Shown piece after piece: positions 1,571 through 24,748 of a stretch of DNA of 64,000 nucleotides. Each line of letters starts with the position of its first letter. Within the stretch, counting starts at the first letter, position 1. This stretch comes from Escherichia coli (GTDB lineage Bacteria; Pseudomonadota; Gammaproteobacteria; Enterobacterales; Enterobacteriaceae), in assembly GCF_017348835.2 (NCBI RefSeq), contig NZ_CP071375.1; one strand, given 5' to 3'. The position numbers and the translations under genes were made by a program. Under the pieces are notes generated by a model. That model was not told the origin of the DNA. It ran no database searches and saw nothing but the letters and a program-made list of their open reading frames with translations.

Positions 1571-4246
1571 ATGTCGTCAACCCTACGAGAAGCCAGTAAG
1601 GACACGTTGCAGGCCAAAGATAAAACTTACCACTACTACAGCCTGCCGCTTGCTGCCAAATCACTGGGCGATATCACCCGTCTACCCAAGTCACTCAAAG
1701 TTTTGCTCGAAAACCTGCTGCGCTGGCAGGATGGTAACTCGGTTACCGAAGAGGATATCCACGCGCTGGCGGGATGGCTGAAAAATGCCCATGCTGACCG
1801 TGAAATTGCCTACCGCCCGGCAAGGGTGCTGATGCAGGACTTTACCGGCGTACCTGCCGTTGTTGATCTCGCTGCAATGCGCGAAGCGGTTAAACGCCTC
1901 GGCGGCGATACTGCAAAGGTTAACCCGCTCTCACCGGTCGACCTGGTCATTGACCACTCGGTGACCGTCGATCGTTTTGGTGATGATGAGGCATTTGAAG
2001 AAAACGTACGCCTGGAAATGGAGCGCAACCACGAACGTTATGTGTTCCTGAAATGGGGAAAGCAGGCGTTCAGTCGGTTTAGCGTCGTGCCGCCAGGCAC
2101 AGGCATTTGCCATCAGGTTAACCTCGAATATCTCGGCAAAGCAGTGTGGAGCGAATTGCAGGACGGTGAATGGATTGCTTATCCGGATACACTCGTTGGT
2201 ACTGACTCGCACACCACTATGATCAACGGCCTTGGCGTGCTGGGGTGGGGCGTGGGTGGCATCGAAGCAGAAGCCGCAATGTTAGGCCAGCCGGTTTCCA
2301 TGCTTATCCCGGACGTAGTGGGCTTTAAACTTACCGGAAAATTACGTGAAGGTATTACCGCCACAGACCTGGTTCTCACTGTTACCCAAATGCTGCGCAA
2401 ACATGGCGTGGTGGGGAAATTCGTCGAATTTTATGGTGATGGTCTGGATTCACTACCGTTGGCGGATCGCGCCACCATTGCCAATATGTCGCCAGAATAT
2501 GGTGCCACCTGTGGCTTCTTCCCGATCGATGCTGTAACCCTCGATTACATGCGTTTAAGCGGGCGCAGCGAAGATCAGGTCGAGTTGGTCGAAAAATATG
2601 CCAAAGCGCAGGGCATGTGGCGTAACCCGGGCGATGAACCGATTTTTACCAGTACGTTAGAACTGGATATGAATGACGTTGAAGCGAGCCTGGCAGGGCC
2701 TAAACGCCCACAGGATCGCGTTGCACTGCCCGATGTACCAAAAGCATTTGCCGCCAGTAACGAACTGGAAGTGAATGCCACGCATAAAGATCGCCAGCCG
2801 GTCGATTATGTTATGAACGGACATCAGTATCAGTTACCTGATGGCGCTGTGGTCATTGCTGCGATAACCTCGTGCACCAACACCTCTAACCCAAGTGTGC
2901 TGATGGCCGCAGGCTTGCTGGCGAAAAAAGCCGTAACTCTTGGCCTCAAGCGGCAACCGTGGGTCAAAGCGTCGCTGGCACCGGGTTCGAAAGTCGTTTC
3001 TGATTATCTGGCAAAAGCGAAACTGACACCGTATCTCGACGAACTGGGGTTTAACCTTGTGGGATACGGTTGTACCACCTGTATTGGTAACTCTGGGCCG
3101 CTGCCCGATCCTATCGAAACGGCAATCAAAAAAGGCGATTTAACCGTCGGTGCAGTGCTGTCCGGCAACCGTAACTTTGAAGGCCGTATCCATCCGCTGG
3201 TTAAAACTAACTGGCTGGCCTCGCCGCCGCTGGTGGTTGCCTATGCGCTGGCGGGAAATATGAATATCAACCTGGCTTCTGAGCCTATTGGTCATGATCG
3301 TAAAGGCGATCCGGTTTATCTGAAAGATATCTGGCCATCGGCACAAGAAATTGCCCGTGCGGTAGAACAAGTCTCCACAGAAATGTTCCGCAAAGAGTAC
3401 GCAGAAGTTTTTGAAGGCACAGCAGAGTGGAAGGAAATTAACGTCACACGATCCGATACCTACGGCTGGCAGGAGGATTCAACCTATATTCGCTTATCGC
3501 CTTTCTTTGATGAAATGCAGGCAACACCAGCACCCGTGGAAGATATTCACGGTGCACGGATCCTCGCAATGCTGGGGGATTCAGTCACCACTGACCATAT
3601 CTCTCCGGCGGGCAGTATTAAGCCCGACAGCCCGGCAGGTCGATATCTACAAGGTCGGGGTGTTGAGCGGAAAGACTTTAACTCCTACGGTTCGCGGCGT
3701 GGTAACCATGAAGTGATGATGCGCGGCACCTTCGCCAATATTCGCATCCGTAATGAAATGGTGCCTGGCGTTGAAGGGGGGATGACGCGGCATTTACCTG
3801 ACAGCGACGTAGTCTCTATCTATGATGCCGCGATGCGCTATAAGCAGGAGCAAACGCCGCTGGCGGTGATTGCCGGGAAAGAGTATGGATCAGGCTCCAG
3901 CCGTGACTGGGCGGCAAAAGGTCCGCGTCTGCTTGGTATTCGTGTGGTGATTGCCGAATCGTTTGAACGAATTCACCGTTCGAATTTAATTGGCATGGGC
4001 ATCCTGCCGCTGGAATTTCCGCAAGGCGTAACGCGTAAAACGTTAGGGCTAACCGGGGAAGAGAAGATTGATATTGGCGATCTGCAAAACCTACAACCCG
4101 GCGCGACGGTTCCGGTGACGCTTACGCGCGCGGATGGTAGCCAGGAAGTCGTACCCTGCCGTTGTCGTATCGACACCGCGACGGAGTTGACCTACTACCA
4201 GAACGACGGCATTTTGCATTATGTCATTCGTAATATGTTGAAGTAA
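1571..4246 (+). CDS. acnA: aconitate hydratase A (891 aa)
   Basis: full-length ORF with AGGAGG RBS; aconitase family sequence recognised (e.g. [15 protein letters not shown]). Confidence 0.97.
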
Positions 4247-16778: not shown

Positions 16779-17212
16779 AGCTTTAATCCTTATTGTTGAT
16801 GCTTGTTGTGCCTGAAAATCAGGCGATTCGTCGTTTTAGTAAACAGTACGAACAGATAAACGGTTATTATAATCAACCTGGCTGTGGGTGGCTATAGTTG
16901 CGCTTTCTGTACCGGAGAGAAGCTGCGGTACAGAGCATTTTGCGTTATCTACTCTTGACGCCTGCAAGGGGTAGGTTGGGGAAATATCTTATAGAATCTG
17001 ACTATGAAACTATTCGTATTAGCTCCGATAAGTTTGATGATGAAAACAGAACTGGCGACAACAAGTAGCTGCCTTTCTGATGAATTTACCCCAACTTAAT
17101 ATTGTCAACTATCTTCACAGAATCTCCACAATCTCTTCATTATCAGAATATGCACCATGAATAAGTTAAAAATACTTTCCATTACTTTGGAGAAACGTAT
17201 AATCAGCAAAAA

Positions 17213-17230
17213 TGAGAACGATCATTCTCA
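17213..17230. promoter_or_regulatory. perfect palindrome TGAGAA-N6-TTCTCA about 25 nt upstream of the TetR start; candidate TetR-family operator
   Basis: 6-bp perfect inverted repeat arms; TATAAT-like hexamer at 17198-17203 just upstream. Confidence 0.35.
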
Positions 17231-17255
17231 CCAAGTGATAGGCCAGGAGACAGAA

Positions 17256-17822
17256 ATGACCAGCAAGCTGGAGATACGCCACAAACAGCGTCAGGATGAA
17301 ATCATTAACGCCGCCCGTCGGTGTTTTCGTCGCTGCGGGTTTCATGCCGCCAGTATGTCGCAAATTGCCAGCGAAGCTCAGCTTAGCGTGGGTCAGATAT
17401 ATCGTTACTTCGCCAACAAAGACGCCATTATTGAAGAGATGGTTCGCCGTATCATCGACTTTCGTATTGCCCAAATGGACATTGACGCGCGTACCGATCA
17501 CTTCCCGGAAGTCCTTGCCTTGCGTAAATCCTTAAATGAGGACGACGACGCGCTGATGCTGGAAGTGGCTGCAGAAGCCACACGCAACCCGCGGGTTATG
17601 GCAATGCTTGAAGAAGCTGACGCCAGAATGTTCGCTAACGGTTGTGCACATATGAAAAGAATGCATCCCCATCTTAGCGACGAGCACATTCGTTGCTGCG
17701 TTGAAGTGTTTGCTACCATGATGGAAGGTACGGTTTATCGTCGTTTAACACCGCAAAAAAGCGATCCACAACATCTGCAGGAATTATATCAGGATATTGT
17801 TAGTATGTTGATAAATAAATAA
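17256..17822 (+). CDS. TetR/AcrR-family transcriptional regulator (188 aa from MTSK start; ORF track starts at 17157)
   Basis: N-terminal TetR HTH (SMSQIASEAQLSVGQIYRYFANKDAI); AGGAG RBS 8 nt upstream of 17256. Confidence 0.85.
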   Translation: MTSKLEIRHKQRQDEIINAARRCFRRCGFHAASMSQIASEAQLSVGQIYRYFANKDAIIEEMVRRIIDFRIAQMDIDARTDHFPEVLALRKSLNEDDDALMLEVAAEATRNPRVMAMLEEADARMFANGCAHMKRMHPHLSDEHIRCCVEVFATMMEGTVYRRLTPQKSDPQHLQELYQDIVSMLINK

Positions 17823-17842
17823 GAACAGAATTAACCAATAGC

Positions 17843-17866
17843 GGGGGATATTAATCCCCCTTATTT
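17843..17866 (+). terminator. stem-loop after TetR gene (GGGGGAT-ATTA-ATCCCCC + TTATTT)
   Basis: 7-bp GC-rich inverted repeat followed by T-rich run, 20 nt after TetR stop. Confidence 0.45.
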
Positions 17867-17923
17867 CATTGCGAAATTCATTTCGCGATGCGGGTTCGTT
17901 ATAACTGAATATCCCTGACATAT

Positions 17924-17960
17924 CCTCATTAATTTTAATGAGGAGGGTATTTCTCACCCT
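17924..17960. promoter_or_regulatory. two adjacent inverted repeats (CCTCATTAA-TT-TTAATGAGG; AGGGT-N7-ACCCT) directly upstream of the efflux operon RBS; candidate operator or promoter
   Basis: 9-bp perfect palindrome plus a second 5-bp inverted repeat within 50 nt of the MFP start. Confidence 0.35.
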
Positions 17961-17970
17961 GGAGAAAATA

Positions 17971-19092
17971 ATGAAGTATATAGCAACATCTGTAGTGGCA
18001 ATGCTGCTCTTATCTGGTTGTGATAATACGCAAAGTAACAATTCATCCCCGTCAGAAACAGAAGTCGGCGTTGTTACAGTCAAATCTCAACCGGTCTCGG
18101 TAGTCAGTGAATTAACCGGACGCACCAGTGCTGCGCTCAGTGCCGAAGTACGTCCGCAGGTTGGGGGAATTATCCAGAAACGCTTATTTAAGGAAGGTGA
18201 TCTGGTCAAGGCTGGACAGCCGCTCTACCAGATTGATGCGGCCAGTTATCAGGCTGCATGGAATGAAGCTCGGGCAGCATTACAACAAGCACAGGCACTG
18301 GTAAAAGCCGATTGCCAGAAAGCGCAGCGTTATGCCCGACTGGTGAAAGAGAACGGTGTTTCACAACAGGATGCTGATGATGCTCAGTCTACCTGTGCAC
18401 AAGATAAAGCCAGTGTAGAGGCGAAAAAAGCCGCACTGGAAACTGCGCGCATTAATCTTGACTGGACCACGGTAACCGCACCGATTTCAGGGCGCATTGG
18501 CATTTCGTCGGTAACCCCTGGCGCACTGGTGACCGCGTCGCAAGATACAGCGTTAACGACTATTCGTGGTCTGGATACAATGTATGTCGACCTCACTCGC
18601 TCCAGTGTCGATTTATTACGTCTGCGTAAACAGTCACTGGCGACCAACAGTGACACCATGAGCGTCTCACTTATTCTGGAAGATGGCACAACCTACAGCG
18701 AAAAAGGGCGTCTGGAACTCACCGAAGTCGCTGTAGATGAGTCTACCGGTTCGGTGACATTACGGGCGATTTTCCCCAATCCACAACAGCAGTTATTACC
18801 GGGAATGTTTGTTCGCGCTCGTGTCGATGAAGGCGTGATGGAAGACGCTATTCTCGCGCCGCAACAGGGCGTCACGCGCGATGCTAAAGGCAATGCAACT
18901 GCGCTGGTGGTGAATAAAGACAATAAAGTAGAGCAGCGAACGCTCGAAACGGGAGAAACATATGGTGATAAATGGCTGGTGCTAAACGGCCTGCACAACG
19001 GCGACCGACTGATTGTTGAAGGTTCTGCAAAAGTCACTTCAGGGCAGACGGTCAAGGCTGTTGAAGTTCAGGCTAATGGAGGCAACGCCTGA
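17971..19092 (+). CDS. RND efflux periplasmic adaptor (membrane fusion lipoprotein), AcrA/MexA-like (373 aa from MKYIATS start)
   Basis: lipoprotein signal with lipobox LLSGC; coiled-coil and beta-barrel MFP architecture; GGAG RBS. Confidence 0.9.
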   Translation: MKYIATSVVAMLLLSGCDNTQSNNSSPSETEVGVVTVKSQPVSVVSELTGRTSAALSAEVRPQVGGIIQKRLFKEGDLVKAGQPLYQIDAASYQAAWNEARAALQQAQALVKADCQKAQRYARLVKENGVSQQDADDAQSTCAQDKASVEAKKAALETARINLDWTTVTAPISGRIGISSVTPGALVTASQDTALTTIRGLDTMYVDLTRSSVDLLRLRKQSLATNSDTMSVSLILEDGTTYSEKGRLELTEVAVDESTGSVTLRAIFPNPQQQLLPGMFVRARVDEGVMEDAILAPQQGVTRDAKGNATALVVNKDNKVEQRTLETGETYGDKWLVLNGLHNGDRLIVEGSAKVTSGQTVKAVEVQANGGNA

Positions 19093-22000
19093 TGTTTTCG
19101 CGCTTTTTTGTTCGCCGCCCGGTCTTTGCCTGGGTTATCGCCATTTTGATTATGTTGGCGGGGATTCTGGCTATTCGCACATTGCCCGTCGCGCAATATC
19201 CTGACGTTGCGCCACCGACCATTAAAATTTCAGCCACTTATACTGGTGCTTCTGCCGAAACGCTGGAGAACAGCGTGACTCAGGTTATCGAGCAACAACT
19301 CACTGGGCTTGATAATTTACTCTATTTCAGCTCAACCAGCAGCTCTGATGGTTCGGTCAGTATTAATGTGACCTTTGAACAAGGTACCGATCCAGATACT
19401 GCACAGGTTCAGGTGCAGAATAAAATTCAGCAGGCCGAGTCGCGCCTACCCAGCGAAGTGCAGCAAACGGGTGTTACGGTGGAGAAATCACAAAGCAACT
19501 TTTTGCTGATTGCTGCCGTGTATGACACCACTGACAAAGCCTCCAGTTCGGATATCGCCGACTGGTTGGTTAGTAACGTTCAGGACCCGCTGGCGCGTGT
19601 TGAAGGTGTGGGGAGTCTGCAAGTCTTTGGCGCGGAATACGCTATGCGCATCTGGCTTGACCCGGCCAAACTGGCGTCTTATTCGCTAATGCCTTCAGAC
19701 GTGCAAAGTGCTATTGAAGCGCAAAACGTGCAGGTTACTGCCGGGAAAATAGGGGCATTGCCTTCACCGAATACTCAGCAACTGACCGCAACGGTACGTG
19801 CGCAGTCTCGCTTGCAGACGGTGGATCAGTTCAAAAATATTATCGTGAAAAGCCAGTCAGACGGCGCAGTTGTTCGTATAAAAGATGTGGCTCGTGTTGA
19901 GATGGGCAGTGAAGATTATACCGCTATCGGCAAACTTAACGGTCACCCGTCTGCCGGGGTTGCTGTAATGCTTTCGCCCGGTGCGAATGCGCTGAATACG
20001 GCGACGCTGGTCAAGGATAAGATTGCCGAATTCCAGCGGAACATGCCGCAGGGATACGACATCGCTTACCCGAAAGACAGCACTGAATTTATTAAAATCT
20101 CTGTAGAGGACGTAATTCAGACGCTGTTTGAAGCCATCGTATTGGTGGTTTGCGTGATGTATTTATTCCTGCAAAACCTGCGTGCCACACTGATTCCGGC
20201 GTTAGCTGTCCCCGTCGTTTTGCTGGGCACATTCGGCGTTCTTGCGTTGTTTGGCTATTCGATTAATACCCTGACGTTGTTTGCAATGGTGCTGGCGATC
20301 GGCTTGCTGGTGGACGATGCCATTGTGGTAGTGGAGAACGTCGAACGCATTATGCGTGACGAAGGGTTGCCCGCGCGTGAAGCCACGGAAAAATCAATGG
20401 GCGAGATTTCTGGCGCACTGGTTGCCATTGCGCTGGTGTTGTCAGCCGTATTCCTGCCTATGGCCTTCTTTGGGGGATCTACGGGGGTAATTTATCGTCA
20501 GTTTTCGATAACCATTATCTCCGCAATGCTGCTTTCCGTGGTGGTGGCATTGACCTTGACTCCCGCCCTGTGCGGTTCCGTCCTCCAGCATGTTCCGCCA
20601 CATAAAAAAGGCTTTTTCGGCGCATTTAACCGCTTTTACCGCCGTACTGAAGATAAATATCAGCGAGGCGTAATTTATGTCCTGCGCCGTGCTGCTCGAA
20701 CGATGGGGCTTTATCTCGTACTGGGTGGTGGAATGGCCCTGATGATGTGGAAACTGCCGGGCAGTTTCTTACCCACTGAAGACCAGGGCGAAATCATGGT
20801 GCAGTACACGCTGCCGGCCGGGGCGACCGCTGCCCGTACAGCAGAAGTGAATCGCCAGATTGTTGACTGGTTCCTGATTAACGAGAAAGCAAATACCGAT
20901 GTCATTTTTACCGTTGATGGTTTCAGTTTTAGCGGCAGCGGACAGAACACCGGGATGGCGTTTGTTTCGTTGAAAAACTGGTCTCAACGTAAAGGGGCAG
21001 AAAACACCGCCCAGGCTATCGCCCTACGGGCAACCAAAGAGCTGGGCACAATTCGTGATGCCACGGTATTTGCGATGACGCCGCCAGCCGTTGATGGGCT
21101 GGGGCAAAGCAATGGTTTTACGTTTGAATTGTTAGCTAACGGTGGAACCGATCGCGAAACACTACTGCAAATGCGTAATCAGTTGATAGAAAAAGCGAAT
21201 CAAAGTCCGGAGTTACATTCTGTTCGTGCCAATGATTTGCCACAAATGCCGCAATTGCAGGTAGATATTGATAGTAATAAAGCGGTGTCATTAGGGTTGA
21301 GTTTGAATGATGTCACCGACACCCTGTCCAGTGCGTGGGGCGGTACTTATGTGAATGACTTTATTGACCGTGGTCGTGTGAAAAAAGTCTACATTCAGGG
21401 CGACAGTGAATTTCGTTCCGCGCCGTCAGACTTAGGTAAATGGTTTGTGCGCGGTAGCGATAACGCCATGACACCATTCTCTGCTTTTGCGACCACCCGC
21501 TGGCTGTATGGACCGGAAAGACTGGTGCGCTACAACGGTTCTGCAGCCTATGAAATTCAGGGGGAAAATGCGACTGGCTTTAGTTCCGGCGATGCAATGA
21601 CAAAAATGGAGGAACTGGCAAACAGTCTTCCTGCGGGAACAACCTGGGCCTGGAGTGGTTTGTCATTGCAGGAGAAACTGGCCAGCGGTCAGGCATTGAG
21701 TCTGTATGCAGTTTCTATTCTGGTGGTTTTCCTCTGCCTTGCAGCACTGTACGAAAGCTGGTCAGTCCCGTTCTCGGTCATTCTGGTGATCCCTCTGGGG
21801 CTTCTTGGCGCGGCGCTGGCGGCCTGGATGCGTGATTTAAACAACGATGTTTACTTCCAGGTGGCGCTATTAACCACTATCGGCTTGTCGTCGAAAAACG
21901 CCATTCTGATTGTGGAATTTGCTGAAGCGGCGGTTGCAGAGGGCTATTCCTTGAGTCGTGCGGCATTACGCGCGGCGCAGACTCGTTTACGCCCAATCAT

Positions 22001-22199
22001 TATGACCTCGCTGGCGTTTATTGCGGGGGTAATGCCGCTGGCGATAGCAACCGGCGCAGGGGCGAACAGCCGCATCGCCATTGGTACGGGCATTATTGGC
22101 GGTACGCTGACCGCTACGTTGCTGGCTATTTTCTTTGTTCCTCTGTTTTTTGTACTGGTGAAACGTTTGTTTGCCGGTAAACCGCGCCGTCAGGAGTAA
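19092..22199 (+). CDS. RND (HAE1 family) inner-membrane multidrug efflux pump, AcrB/MexB-like (1035 aa)
   Basis: 12-TM RND architecture, characteristic N-terminus (MFSRFFVRRPVFAWVIAILIML); start overlaps MFP stop (ATGA). Confidence 0.93.
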   Translation: MFSRFFVRRPVFAWVIAILIMLAGILAIRTLPVAQYPDVAPPTIKISATYTGASAETLENSVTQVIEQQLTGLDNLLYFSSTSSSDGSVSINVTFEQGTDPDTAQVQVQNKIQQAESRLPSEVQQTGVTVEKSQSNFLLIAAVYDTTDKASSSDIADWLVSNVQDPLARVEGVGSLQVFGAEYAMRIWLDPAKLASYSLMPSDVQSAIEAQNVQVTAGKIGALPSPNTQQLTATVRAQSRLQTVDQFKNIIVKSQSDGAVVRIKDVARVEMGSEDYTAIGKLNGHPSAGVAVMLSPGANALNTATLVKDKIAEFQRNMPQGYDIAYPKDSTEFIKISVEDVIQTLFEAIVLVVCVMYLFLQNLRATLIPALAVPVVLLGTFGVLALFGYSINTLTLFAMVLAIGLLVDDAIVVVENVERIMRDEGLPAREATEKSMGEISGALVAIALVLSAVFLPMAFFGGSTGVIYRQFSITIISAMLLSVVVALTLTPALCGSVLQHVPPHKKGFFGAFNRFYRRTEDKYQRGVIYVLRRAARTMGLYLVLGGGMALMMWKLPGSFLPTEDQGEIMVQYTLPAGATAARTAEVNRQIVDWFLINEKANTDVIFTVDGFSFSGSGQNTGMAFVSLKNWSQRKGAENTAQAIALRATKELGTIRDATVFAMTPPAVDGLGQSNGFTFELLANGGTDRETLLQMRNQLIEKANQSPELHSVRANDLPQMPQLQVDIDSNKAVSLGLSLNDVTDTLSSAWGGTYVNDFIDRGRVKKVYIQGDSEFRSAPSDLGKWFVRGSDNAMTPFSAFATTRWLYGPERLVRYNGSAAYEIQGENATGFSSGDAMTKMEELANSLPAGTTWAWSGLSLQEKLASGQALSLYAVSILVVFLCLAALYESWSVPFSVILVIPLGLLGAALAAWMRDLNNDVYFQVALLTTIGLSSKNAILIVEFAEAAVAEGYSLSRAALRAAQTRLRPIIMTSLAFIAGVMPLAIATGAGANSRIAIGTGIIGGTLTATLLAIFFVPLFFVLVKRLFAGKPRRQE

Positions 22200-22202
22200 G
22201 TT

Positions 22203-23576
22203 ATGTTGCGTCGTTCTCTTATTTTTCTGGTGCTGTTGAGTGCGGGATGTGTCTCGCTCGATCCCCACTACAGCACGCCTGAATCCCCAATCCCGGCGAC
22301 CTTGCCGGGAGCACAGGGCCAGGGAAAGGCAATCAGCCATGACTGGCAGCAGGTGATCCACGATCCCCGATTGCAGCAAGTGGTGACTATTGCACTGAAC
22401 AGTAACCGCGATGTGCAAAAAGCGATTGCTGATATTGACTCAGCACGGGCGCTCTATGGGCAAACTAATGCGTCGTTATTCCCGACGGTGAATGCGGCCT
22501 TAAGTTCAACCCGCAGTCGTTCGCTGGCGAATGGTACGGAAACCACTGCCGAGGCTGACGGCACGGTGTCCAGTTTTACGTTAGATCTGTTTGGTCGTAA
22601 TCAGAGTTTATCTCGGGCGGCGCGAGAAACCTGGCTTGCCAGTGAATTTACAGCCCAGAACACCCGTTTAACGCTGATTGCTGAAATCAGCACCGCCTGG
22701 CTGACACTGGCGGCCGATAACAGCAACCTGGCCCTGGCAAAAGAAACGATGACCAGTGCAGAAAACTCATTGAAAATTATCCAGCGCCAGCAACAGGTTG
22801 GCACGGCGGCAGCGACAGATGTCAGTGAGGCGATGAGTGTTTATCAGCAAGCGCGCGCCAGCGTTGCCAGCTATCAGACACAAGTGATGCAGGATAAAAA
22901 TGCGCTGAACTTACTGGCAGGTACAACGCTTGAGGAAAATTTGCTACCGGGAACACTGGAAAGCCTGCCGGAACAGATGATAAGTCTGGTTCCTGCGGGA
23001 GTGTCATCTGACGTTCTGCTGCGTCGCCCGGATATCCAGGAAGCGGAACATAATTTGAAGAGCGCCAATGCCGATATTGGCGCGGCGCGGGCTAACTTTT
23101 TCCCGACGATTTCGCTGACTGCCAGCGCTGGTGTTGGCAGTGACGCATTGTCGTCGTTGTTCAGCCACGGAATGCAGATCTGGTCATTTACGCCATCGGT
23201 CACATTACCGCTGTTCACTGGCGGAAGTAATCTGGCGCAGCTTCGTTACGCAGAAGCACAAAAGCGTGGACTCATTGCCACCTATGAAAAAACCGTTCAG
23301 AGCGCATTTAAAGATGTCGCTAACGCACTGGCGCGGCGGACCACGCTTGAAGAGCAACTGGATGCACAGCGCCAGTATGTTAAAGCTGAGCAACAAACGG
23401 TCGATGTTGGCTTGCGTCGCTATCAGACGGGTGTTGGTGATTACCTGACCGTGTTGACGGCGCAGCGCAGCTTGTGGAGCGCACAGCAGGAGCTGCTGGC
23501 ACTGCAACTGACTGATTTTACAAACCGAATCACGCTCTGGCAGTCGCTGGGCGGCGGCATGTCATCACTCAAGTAA
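22203..23576 (+). CDS. outer-membrane efflux lipoprotein, OprM/NodT-family OMF (457 aa)
   Basis: lipobox LSAGC; OMF family repeats; 3 nt after RND stop. Confidence 0.9.
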   Translation: MLRRSLIFLVLLSAGCVSLDPHYSTPESPIPATLPGAQGQGKAISHDWQQVIHDPRLQQVVTIALNSNRDVQKAIADIDSARALYGQTNASLFPTVNAALSSTRSRSLANGTETTAEADGTVSSFTLDLFGRNQSLSRAARETWLASEFTAQNTRLTLIAEISTAWLTLAADNSNLALAKETMTSAENSLKIIQRQQQVGTAAATDVSEAMSVYQQARASVASYQTQVMQDKNALNLLAGTTLEENLLPGTLESLPEQMISLVPAGVSSDVLLRRPDIQEAEHNLKSANADIGAARANFFPTISLTASAGVGSDALSSLFSHGMQIWSFTPSVTLPLFTGGSNLAQLRYAEAQKRGLIATYEKTVQSAFKDVANALARRTTLEEQLDAQRQYVKAEQQTVDVGLRRYQTGVGDYLTVLTAQRSLWSAQQELLALQLTDFTNRITLWQSLGGGMSSLK

Positions 23577-23584
23577 GGAATAAT

Positions 23585-24748
23585 ATGGCTAGAGTCTCTC
23601 TTTCATGGGCATTGATTCTTGGTCTTTTAGCCGGTATCGGCCCGATGTGTACCGATCTTTATTTGCCGGCTTTGCCGGAGATGTCTGAGCAACTGGCGGC
23701 AACCACGACCATAACGCAATTAACGCTGACTGCATCACTGATCGGTCTTGGCGTCGGACAACTGTTATTTGGCCCTCTGAGCGACAAAATAGGGCGTAAA
23801 CGTCCGTTAATCTTGTCGTTGCTATTGTTTATTGTTTCTTCCATTTTGTGCGCGACAACGAACAATATTTACTGGCTGGTGATCTGGCGTTTTATTCAAG
23901 GGATCGCGGGGGCGGGTGGTTCGGTGCTCTCTCGTTCTATTGCTCGTGACAAATATCAGGGAGTAACGTTGACCCAGTTTTTTGCGCTGTTAATGACGGT
24001 GAATGGCCTGGCACCGGTGTTGTCGCCAGTGCTGGGCGGGTACATTGTTAGCACTTTTGACTGGCGCACTTTATTCTGGGTAATGGCTGAAATTAGCACC
24101 GTATTGTTGCTGGGCTGCGTGTTATTTATTAATGAGACCTTGCCAGAAAATAAAAGGGGCTCATCATTGCTATTAACCGGACGAAGCGTGGTGCAGAACC
24201 GCCGTTTTATGCGCTTTTGCCTGATTCAAAGTTTTATGCTGGCAGGTTTGTTTGCGTATATCGGCTCTTCGTCGTTCGTGTTGCAGAAGGAATTTGGCTT
24301 TAGTCCAATGCAATTTAGCCTGGTGTTTGGCCTTAACGGCATCGGACTTATCATTGCTTCATGGATCTTTTCGCGTCTGGCGCGACGGATTAATGCGATG
24401 ACATTGTTGCGAGGTGGCCTGATAGCGGCAATTTTGTGTGCATTGCTCACGGTCTTATGCGCATGGACACAATTGCCCATTCCGGCACTGGTGGCATTAT
24501 TTTTCACTATTGCATTTTGTAGCGGCATCGGCACTGTTGGCGGGGCAGAGGCTATGAGTGCAGTAGGGACGCAGGAATCTGGAACGGCGTCTGCGTTGAT
24601 GGGGATGAGCATGTTTGTCTTCGGCGGTATAGCCGCGCCATTGTCGGGATTTGGCGGAGAAACACTGTTAAAAATGAGTCTGGCAATTACGGTGTGTTAT
24701 ACACTGGCATTCCTGGTTGCTCTCACCAGAATCGACAATCAAAAGTAA
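23585..24748 (+). CDS. MFS transporter, Bcr/CflA drug-resistance subfamily (387 aa)
   Basis: 12-TM MFS with motif GPLSDKIGRKRP; AAGGA RBS; 8 nt after OMF stop. Confidence 0.88.
   Translation: MARVSLSWALILGLLAGIGPMCTDLYLPALPEMSEQLAATTTITQLTLTASLIGLGVGQLLFGPLSDKIGRKRPLILSLLLFIVSSILCATTNNIYWLVIWRFIQGIAGAGGSVLSRSIARDKYQGVTLTQFFALLMTVNGLAPVLSPVLGGYIVSTFDWRTLFWVMAEISTVLLLGCVLFINETLPENKRGSSLLLTGRSVVQNRRFMRFCLIQSFMLAGLFAYIGSSSFVLQKEFGFSPMQFSLVFGLNGIGLIIASWIFSRLARRINAMTLLRGGLIAAILCALLTVLCAWTQLPIPALVALFFTIAFCSGIGTVGGAEAMSAVGTQESGTASALMGMSMFVFGGIAAPLSGFGGETLLKMSLAITVCYTLAFLVALTRIDNQK

Follow-up and report, generated by a model that had tools for sequence, protein, structure and literature searches.

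Comparative analysis points to a conserved three-hairpin RNA between eefR and eefA in the eefRABCD efflux operon of Escherichia coli

TetR-type regulators encoded on the same strand as the pump genes are present in lmrAB of Bacillus subtilis, in vexRAB of Vibrio cholerae and in cmeR-cmeABC of Campylobacter, in the last of which the operator is located within the spacer between regulator and pump. Intercistronic stem-loops and leaky terminators can set differential expression within operons, as in papBA, in malEFG with its REP elements and in puf of Rhodobacter. TetR regulators with this orientation form an established class, termed Type II in the classification of Ahn et al. (summarised in PMC6790063), with ComR-comAB as an example. 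In Type II systems the regulator gene precedes the transporter genes on one strand and controls itself via a palindrome in its own promoter, and eefR is alike in these respects. The same-strand layout, regarded as unusual in the original prediction for this locus, thus falls into a described class, and it is regulator-first throughout the eefR loci examined. In contrast to cmeR-cmeABC, the only operator demonstrated for eef is located upstream of eefR and the spacer is a structured RNA. In contrast to the divergent AcrR-acrAB type, the RND genes are located downstream of the regulator, on the same strand and between eefR and eefD.

The window analysed here comprises 64,000 nucleotides from E. 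coli, and the stretch studied within it is the 5´ end of the eefRABCD efflux operon, which has already been published and named (PMC12817139, Pugh et al. 2026; PMC12482432, Shen et al. 2025). The published gene order (TetR regulator, adaptor, RND permease, outer-membrane factor (OMF), MFS transporter) is identical here, the five genes eefR-A-B-C-D following one another in this order from the fabI side to the sapF side. The published EefR operator is identical to the 18-bp sequence in the window, in which the published primers also have exact matches. Regulator, operator and operon are therefore known, and the original observation as written adds little. New is the reading of the eefR-eefA spacer as a conserved three-hairpin RNA in 13 enterobacterial genera and not as an operator region; in the two papers, the spacer terminator and the conserved hairpins are not described and the fragment served only as a non-specific probe. 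The eefRABCD island is present in 2037 of 5426 complete E. coli genomes, with 98.5–100% identity over 1221 bp across these 2037 chromosomes (the query itself matches at 100%); in K-12-type strains ycjD occupies the fabI-sapF interval. The eefABC genes are carried by pathogenic E. coli phylogroups. The GC content of the island is ~50%, the same as that of its flanks, and a foreign-DNA signature was ruled out on this basis.

Promoter and operator of eefR are almost invariant in ~35 orthologous loci from 13 genera, CTTTCCA and CGTATAAT being kept in all of these genera. The promoter PeefR reached 10 of 12 matches in the consensus scan. A 316-bp fragment upstream of eefR drives GFP expression and is repressed by EefR (PMC12482432). 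Binding of EefR to TGAGAACGATCATTCTCA and repression of its own promoter are reported in the same paper from EMSA, deletion and point mutants and a GFP reporter, so that the autoregulation via this palindrome put forward in the original prediction is borne out; a genome-wide motif search reported there found no further operator. With up to one mismatch allowed, the operator pattern is expected by chance 0.11 times per 64 kb. The motif TGAGA[AG]-N6-[CT]TCTCA, for which the inner spacer consensus is [CT]GATC[AG], was found 30–70 nucleotides upstream of eefR in 45 of 80 scanned loci, and nearly all eefR-eefA loci are among these 45.

The TetR gene foreseen in the original prediction is present, with a start one base away from the one implied there; the longer open reading frame beginning at 17157 does not represent the true eefR start. 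NCBIfam matches are to TetR/AcrR models and mostly confined to EefR residues ~9–90, and RefSeq annotates the protein as TetR/AcrR. EefR has the TetR-type N-terminal helix-turn-helix (PF00440), as precomputed for a cluster 99% identical to it (P0001) and for all listed homologues, and the sequence of its recognition helix, LSVGQIYRYF, does not vary among 16 homologues. Promoter, operator and recognition helix are co-conserved over the 13 genera. No EefR ligand is reported in the available text of the eefRABCD literature (PMC12482432), and resistance is described as having arisen via eefR mutations and not via induction.

Table 1. Features at the 5´ end of eefRABCD and the downstream pump genes (positions refer to the window)
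Feature	Position	Strand	Sequence	Properties
PeefR -35	17176-17181	+	TTTCCA	16-nt spacer to -10
PeefR -10	17198-17203	+	TATAAT	
EefR operator	17213-17230		TGAGAA-CGATCA-TTCTCA = TGAGAACGATCATTCTCA	exact palindrome, central GATC
eefR ribosome-binding site	17245-17249		AGGAG	
eefR	17256-17822	+		TetR-family repressor, 188 aa
Hairpin 1	17843-17860	+	GGGGGAT-ATTA-ATCCCCC	7-bp stem, 5 GC pairs, 4-nt loop AUUA, -11.6 kcal/mol
Hairpin 1 with U tract	17843-17870		tail UUAUUUCAUU	interrupted U tract
Hairpin 2	17867-17890	+	CATTGCGAAAT-TC-ATTTCGCGATG	arms CAUUGCGAAA/UUUCGCGAUG, -10.4 kcal/mol
Hairpin 3	17924-17943	+	CCTCATTAA-TT-TTAATGAGG	10-nt arms 17923-17944, -10.0 kcal/mol
Hairpin 3 with possible outer stem	17909-17950		ATATCC/GGGTAT	-13.4 kcal/mol
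Operator-like site	17939-17956		TGAGGA-GGGTAT-TTCTCA = TGAGGAGGGTATTTCTCA	one half-site mismatch, non-consensus spacer; overlaps hairpin 3
Inverted repeat	AGGGT 17944-17948, ACCCT 17956-17960	+	AGGGT-N7-ACCCT	-4.7 kcal/mol, lineage-specific
eefA ribosome-binding site	17961-17964		GGAG	
eefA	17971-19092	+	ATG at 17971	adaptor; NCBIfam subfamily match > cut-off and RefSeq annotation
eefB	19092-22199	+		RND permease; NCBIfam subfamily match > cut-off and RefSeq annotation
eefC	22203-23576	+		outer-membrane factor; NCBIfam subfamily match > cut-off and RefSeq annotation
eefD	23585-24748	+		Bcr/CflA-type MFS; NCBIfam subfamily match > cut-off and RefSeq annotation

The spacer between eefR and eefA is 148 nucleotides long, and every sequence feature listed in the original prediction was found where it had been placed. 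Hairpin 1 is a GC-rich stem-loop followed by a U-rich tract, the arrangement of an intrinsic terminator, and with TTATTTCATT directly 3´ of it the scan calls it terminator-like. In Escherichia this tract is interrupted, and most other genera have a cleaner one (UUUUU); at least five Ts within eight nucleotides from the last stem base (alignment column 65) were found in 28 of 35 orthologues. Hairpin 1 together with its U tract is thus a predicted intrinsic terminator or attenuator after eefR. The original prediction had overlooked the palindrome of hairpin 2 as well as a one-mismatch copy of the operator at 17939-17956. For the 20-mer palindrome of hairpin 3, 0.00 chance occurrences are expected. 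The complete E. coli spacer folds with -48.6 kcal/mol, compared with -32.7 ± 4.1 kcal/mol for shuffled sequences (z = -3.85). Two other pairings compete with the AGGGT-N7-ACCCT repeat, namely the outer stem of hairpin 3 and a UUCUC/GAGAA helix that covers the Shine-Dalgarno sequence; the repeat is paired in 62.7% of cells in the orthologues compared with 57.7% in the slid control, and is thus not conserved.

RNAalifold, run on a plain, structure-blind MAFFT alignment of 33 spacers, recovered only hairpin 2, since hairpins 1 and 3 are out of register in such an alignment. For this reason, a covariance model was derived from 11 sequences of the Enterobacter group and used to realign the spacers, which gave a comparison of ~35 orthologous loci from 13 genera with pair counts taken from a 35-sequence alignment. 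In this alignment, 92.7% of the cells in the three hairpins are paired compared with 47–55% when partners are slid, the former value being inflated by the fitting of the alignment to the structure. Both sides have changed in 20 of the 24 hairpin pairs, and the observed pairing and covariation values were reached by none of 500 shuffles. Covariation is seen in four of the six pairs of helix 1; helices 2 and 3 are 96.4% and 96.0% paired, respectively, each with eight of nine pairs changed on both sides. The cells contain G·U or U·G pairs 83 times and A·C or C·A only 18 times, an excess that points to RNA of the sense strand. Folding of single sequences, which is independent of the alignment, yielded all three hairpins for almost all orthologues. 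Hairpins 1 to 3 thus display compensatory changes on one strand, as a conserved structured RNA does, and arms and loops of hairpin 3 vary between genera. Judged from the sequences compared, the spacer is a conserved sense-strand three-hairpin RNA that is maintained by compensatory substitution and not by sequence. Since the arms are kept by pairing, the spacer palindromes would behave as conserved RNA hairpins and not as DNA operators.

Some lineages depart from this pattern. Klebsiella sp. BIGb0407 has a spacer of 42 nucleotides without the hairpins, and in K. aerogenes the first hairpin has no U tract and hairpin 2 is absent. In one Escherichia lineage (locus L005) an ERIC-like insertion is located beside hairpin 1; this is the only locus of this kind, and an assignment of the hairpins to REP or ERIC elements is unsupported. 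A search of positions 16800-18200 against Rfam 15 (E ≤ 10) returned sub-threshold noise and no family at its gathering score, the best matches being sraA (21 bits compared with 56 required, E = 2.5) and RAGATH-23 (17 bits compared with 92.6).

The model that explains these observations best, and that we consider probable, is one repressed promoter combined with read-through of a leaky terminator. A single sigma-70 promoter (TTTCCA-16-TATAAT) is repressed by an EefR dimer sitting on one operator just downstream of the -10 element, as published (PMC12482432). Hairpin 1 would act as a leaky terminator, resulting in more regulator mRNA than pump mRNA; it has to be leaky since EefR-dependent induction of the pump must traverse the spacer. 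Hairpins 2 and 3, which flank an AU-rich linker (17895-17922), would most likely act as mRNA processing or stability elements uncoupling the eefR and eefABCD segments. In this they would resemble papBA, malEFG and puf, with stable hairpins between low-need and high-need cistrons, those of eef being kept by pairing and being unlike the REP sequences of malEFG. The reported expression data are consistent with this model. Loss of EefR raises eefA-D mRNA 27–83-fold in qRT-PCR, and since the ∆eefR allele is a small edit within eefR, as its ssDNA sequence indicates, this induction does not stem from a rearranged spacer (PMC12482432). The pump genes are also expressed when placed behind Ptet together with the native spacer. 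Furthermore, RT-PCR products cross every gene junction of eefRABCD, eefR-eefA included (PMC12482432), thus termination at hairpin 1 is incomplete.

The junction products show that some read-through occurs, which is compatible with an internal start too. An independent pump promoter in the spacer under a second DNA-binding regulator, for instance H-NS or another factor acting via the palindromes or via the block ahead of the ribosome-binding site, would fit several observations. The sequence upstream of eefA is essential for the plasmid phenotype, for which a native promoter or a further regulator was suggested (PMC12482432), eefABC of K. aerogenes is reported in citing papers to be silenced by H-NS, the block TCGTTCACCCTGGA(A/G)AAA is conserved in sequence and not in pairing alone, and the surroundings of the eefR promoter as well as the spacer are relatively AT-rich (38–44% GC). 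However, the consensus scan of the + strand of the spacer found no promoter-like or sigma-70-like site, no -10 or -35 element is conserved in the alignments, and none of the sigma-70, sigma-54 and extended -10 candidates is kept in orthologues. Moreover, the arms and loops of the palindromes vary freely while pairing persists, the tolerance of G·U far above A·C is a signature of RNA and not of protein-DNA contacts, loss of EefR alone suffices for induction, and 42 nucleotides are enough in the Klebsiella lineage with the short spacer. We consider such a promoter unlikely, and a second regulator at the pump is disfavoured. The original prediction, which had placed a pump promoter here, named a read-through transcript as the result that would speak against it, and the RT-PCR across the eefR-eefA junction largely supplies this result.

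That EefR itself also binds the spacer and represses or road-blocks the pump there, through the second operator proposed originally, is highly improbable. The operator-like site TGAGGAGGGTATTTCTCA is located a few nucleotides before the ribosome-binding site of eefA, matches an operator pattern as rare by chance as stated above and is kept in four of four mainstream E. coli strains checked. Its mismatch (TGAGAA to TGAGGA), however, corresponds by dyad symmetry to the change in mutant M1 (TTCTCA to TCCTCA), for which not even the highest protein level produced a shift (PMC12482432); in addition, its inner spacer GGGTAT departs from the conserved consensus, and the site is lacking in E. coli SCPM, in E. 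whittamii, in E. albertii and in every other genus compared. It is thus probably non-functional. The 146-bp fragment 17825-17970, to which we could map the primers of the non-specific EMSA competitor and which covers the entire spacer, failed to compete for EefR at 1–2x excess, the only range published, at which weak binding to the spacer could escape (PMC12482432). The palindrome 17924-17943, likewise proposed as an operator, lacks both sequence kinship to the proven operator and conservation together with the regulator: its CCTCATTAA arms are unrelated to TGAGAA and conserved in pairing only, other genera have CCCTGTTAA, CCCTGCTA, CCTCGC and further forms although the recognition helix is invariant, and the inner pairs are broken in three of four sampled E. 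coli strains.

An RNA-based reading of the spacer as a cis-regulatory switch (a thermometer or a leader responding to a ligand, a protein or an sRNA), in which alternative pairing at the Shine-Dalgarno sequence gates eefA translation, seems to us quite unlikely. In its favour are the conservation of the structure and the block of conserved sequence that precedes the Shine-Dalgarno sequence; in E. coli, AGGGU has two possible partners, one upstream, which gives the outer stem of hairpin 3, and ACCCU downstream, and UUCUC is able to pair with the Shine-Dalgarno GAGAA. The latter pairing is part of the minimum-energy fold of E. coli, but with 56.5% paired in the orthologues it stays at the control level and was rejected. 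A conserved CCCUG is a further possible partner of the 3´ arm of hairpin 3, the two being paired in 89.5% of cells, but the shuffle mean is 89.1%, thus there is no covariation beyond shuffles and sequence conservation alone explains the value. Against a switch also speak the lack of conservation of the hairpin loops, the limited AGGGT/ACCCT pairing, the absence of an Rfam family at threshold and the absence of a conserved upstream open reading frame upon inspection of the orthologue alignment. A small upstream frame at the ATG in GAGATGCGG (17888) was rejected, since length, frame and start codon vary and no usable Shine-Dalgarno spacing is present.

The pump has been termed 'cryptic' under laboratory conditions, which would suit a switch, and two laboratories conflict on the resistance it confers, the sequence upstream of eefA being held responsible. 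The predicted terminator and the two stable hairpins located in this sequence offer a concrete and testable reason for the conflict. Hairpins 2 and 3 together with the block preceding the Shine-Dalgarno sequence (17867-17970) might even constitute an undescribed post-transcriptional element that decides whether pump protein is made from read-through transcripts, an idea we hold as rather doubtful. It may work as a processing or stability switch or as a leader to which a protein or an sRNA binds. If true, it would explain the laboratory crypticity of eefABCD as well as the conflicting phenotypes, depending on whether the native sequence upstream of eefA was cloned or not.

The second new point concerns the origin of the layout. 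In relatives, the MFS gene eefD directly follows eefR, and the same-strand, regulator-first arrangement is thus ancestral: it belongs to an eefR-eefD module that seems to have taken up the RND genes. The divergent layout of the AcrR-acrAB type is seen in distant EefR relatives (48–50% identity) of Serratia marcescens and Brenneria, in which the eefA and eefB homologues are divergent from eefR with a single 26-bp palindrome, ATTGAGAATGAACGTTCATTCTCAAT, between them.

Autoregulation of eefR, one half of the original prediction, was upheld, whereas its other half, a second control region before the pump genes, was largely superseded. On inspection of the window, all predicted sequence features were present, at most one base from their predicted positions, and they are beyond chance: per window, 0.11 matches to the operator pattern and none to the 20-mer palindrome would be expected, and the RNA fold of the eefR-eefA spacer is 3.85 standard deviations better than that of shuffles. 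A 24-bp palindrome and an operator-like sequence with one mismatch were not part of that prediction.

Genes and sequence features of the eef locus (window positions unless indicated)
Feature	Position	Strand
TATAAT	17198-17203	
Operator palindrome TGAGAA-N6-TTCTCA	17213-17230	
eefR, TetR-family gene	17256-17822	+
GC hairpin with T-rich tail (hairpin 1)	17843-17866	
24-bp palindrome (hairpin 2)	17867-17890	
20-bp palindrome (hairpin 3)	17924-17943	
Operator-like sequence, one mismatch	17939-17956	
AGGGT-N7-ACCCT	17944-17960	
eefA, RND adaptor	17971-19092	+
eefB, RND permease	19092-22199	+
eefC, outer-membrane factor	22203-23576	+
eefD, Bcr/CflA-type MFS transporter	23585-24748	+
eefR in the eefR-eefD loci L012, L013, L024, L026 and L032-L081 (other genomes, own numbering)	2501-~3060	
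eefD homologue in the same loci	from ~3060-3210	

Shen et al. 2025 (PMC12482432) showed that a GFP reporter placed behind 316 bp of eefR upstream DNA is repressed by EefR (188 aa) and that the purified protein shifts a 129-bp probe with TGAGAACGATCATTCTCA, located by its primers at 17127-17255. This shift is lost upon deletion of the palindrome or a single-base change in it, and genome-wide no gene was reported there to be preceded by another copy of the motif. RT-PCR products were obtained across all junctions from eefR to eefD, and inactivation of eefR increased eefA-D mRNA 27-83-fold. Across genera, eefR is preceded by a near-invariant -35 (TTTCCA), -10 (TATAAT) and operator (TGAGAA[CT]GATC[AG][TC]TCTCA). 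The recognition helix of EefR, LSVGQIYRYF, is invariant in homologues; it contains Val45 and Arg50, the two residues whose mutation was reported to derepress the operon. This conservation independently supports the published operator, and autoregulation via the palindrome was predicted correctly.

The operator centre (17219-17224) is a Dam site (GATC), and [CT]GATC[AG] is present in most Enterobacteriaceae orthologues. A comparison of the -10-to-operator spacing between the window (17198-17230) and seven loci from other genomes (L014, L020, L021, L025, L027, L067, L082) revealed that the operator begins 9-10 nt downstream of TATAAT in Escherichia, Raoultella and Kluyvera, whereas in the Enterobacter group it directly adjoins the -10 (TATAATGAGAAC...), an offset of about one helical turn. 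The Discussion of PMC12482432 gives the motif as TGAGAAN5TTCTCA; the sequence reported there and the window have a six-base spacer. The minus strand of the eefR 3´ end has a strong match to a promoter, though by consensus only (TCAACA-17-TATAAT preceded by a TG, 17811-17783); transcription from it would run antisense into eefR.

A second EefR operator in the spacer would have to lie in DNA that, by primer mapping, was itself the published "non-specific" competitor (17825-17970, the whole spacer with all palindromes flagged in the original prediction); in PMC12482432 it did not compete for EefR, at an excess of 1-2x only. The operator-like sequence TGAGGA-GGGTAT-TTCTCA is one position off the operator half-sites, and its mismatch is the dyad-symmetric equivalent of the M1 mutant (TTCTCA to TCCTCA, primer MT-1-R), for which loss of EefR binding is reported there. 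Its own spacer does not contain the conserved GATC core, and among the strains and orthologues compared it was not found outside mainstream E. coli. It is judged to be without function, although there is a slight chance that it binds EefR weakly. Of the cells of the AGGGT-N7-ACCCT repeat, only 62.7% were paired in orthologues, near the slid control. With no second operator demonstrated and no promoter detected in the spacer, the evidence favours RNA hairpins.

The three spacer palindromes keep their positions among orthologues and change their sequences: the arms of the third are CCTCATTAA/TTAATGAGG in the window, CCCTGTTAA/TTAACAGGG in Enterobacter, CCCTGCTA/TAGCAGGG in Raoultella and CCTCGC/GCGAGG in Kluyvera. 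A covariance model built on 11 Enterobacter-group sequences gave one match per source in 35 sources including the window, and none elsewhere in the window. In the model alignment, which is fitted to the model and thus biased toward pairing, 92.7% of cells were paired versus 47-55% after shifting partners by 1-3 columns; of 24 pairs, 20 had changed on both sides, and values as high as those observed came up in none of 500 shuffles. Pairing was 96% in helices 2 and 3, with 8/9 pairs covarying in each. Two controls independent of the model agree: hairpin 2 was recovered in a structure-blind MAFFT alignment (6/9 pairs compensated), and when each spacer was folded separately by minimum energy, nearly all orthologues gave the three hairpins. 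There were more G·U and U·G cells (83) than A·C and C·A cells (18), the pattern expected of a plus-strand RNA and not of a protein-bound DNA palindrome. Thus, the evidence points to a conserved structured RNA and not to an operator region. In three of four sampled E. coli strains, the third palindrome has TTTC instead of TTTT at its centre; an inner pair is lost and a 7-bp stem remains.

The eefR knockout of PMC12482432 is a small intragenic edit; with a single EefR operator, the 27-83-fold induction must therefore start at the eefR promoter and cross the spacer. Hairpin 1 is shaped like an intrinsic terminator, with a U tract kept in 28/35 orthologues, and must therefore be leaky. Such a terminator would generate more eefR transcripts than pump transcripts. 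Pump genes on a plasmid were expressed from Ptet via the native spacer. Hairpins 2 and 3, which have non-conserved loops and are separated by an AU-rich linker, are proposed to act in processing or stability. The spacer is only 42 nt long in Klebsiella sp. BIGb0407 and is reduced in K. aerogenes, showing that the hairpin structure is dispensable and also arguing against an obligatory internal promoter.

Pairing that sequesters the Shine-Dalgarno sequence in the E. coli fold was at control level across orthologues. An alternative pairing between the 3´ arm of hairpin 3 and a conserved CCCUG was frequent, but sequence conservation alone accounts for this frequency. Upstream of the start codon, the block TCGTTCACCCTGGA(A/G)AAA is conserved as sequence. 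In Escherichia sp. MOD1-EC7003 (L005:3085-3210), a 124-bp insertion with CACCCCAGTCACTTACT...AGTAAGCTCCAGGGGATTCAC, which resembles an ERIC/IRU repeat, lies between the eefR stop codon and hairpin 1; all three hairpins are intact downstream of it.

The same-strand layout had been considered unusual; it is not, as same-orientation TetR regulators make up the recognised Type II class. A scan with an EefR profile, using one genome per species, identified 80 loci. In about 35 of them, from 13 genera, eefR is followed by eefA on the same strand after a 129-155-nt spacer; in about 40 further ones (Erwinia, Pantoea, Serratia, several Kosakonia and Kluyvera), an eefD-like MFS gene directly follows eefR, without RND genes. 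Serratia marcescens and Brenneria have eefA/eefB homologues oriented divergently to eefR-eefD, and the region between the two holds a single 26-bp palindrome, ATTGAGAATGAACGTTCATTCTCAAT (L068, L069, 1-2360). On the simplest reading of these gene orders, the ancestral module would be a regulator-first eefR-eefD, and the eefR-eefD-only loci together with the divergent eefA/eefB suggest that eefABC was placed inside it; the Enterobacteriaceae RND genes are now flanked by eefR and eefD. The K. aerogenes eef operon is described in the literature as lacking eefR; in K. aerogenes GCA_029843285.1 (L083:2950-3720), an eefR-like gene (59% identity, 202 aa) with the operator TGAGAACAATCACTCTCA lies directly upstream of eefA.

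The eef system itself is already known: Pugh et al. 2026 (PMC12817139) count it as the seventh E. coli RND system and describe it as restricted to phylogroups B2, D, E, F and G. What is added here, the conserved structured spacer and the ancestry of eefR-eefD, is modest. The window is chromosomal, with rnb, yciW and fabI on the minus strand followed by the plus-strand eef cluster, which in O157:H7 is placed between fabI and sapF and whose place is occupied by ycjD in K-12-type strains. Of 5426 complete E. coli genomes, 2037 matched the whole of a 1221-bp query across the site (98.5-100% identity); the others match just its first 122 bases, which sets the left edge of the island at about 16902. 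Just within this boundary, where the K-12-type match ends, lies a 12-nt inverted repeat, TCTGTACCGGAG/CTGCGGTACAGA (16906-16934). In O157:H7 strain 6535NalR, a laboratory mutant, eefB is annotated in RefSeq as a frameshifted pseudogene (L001:11313-14415). Plasmids account for seven of the matching places, which fits the published plasmid-borne eefRABCD in a few E. coli strains.
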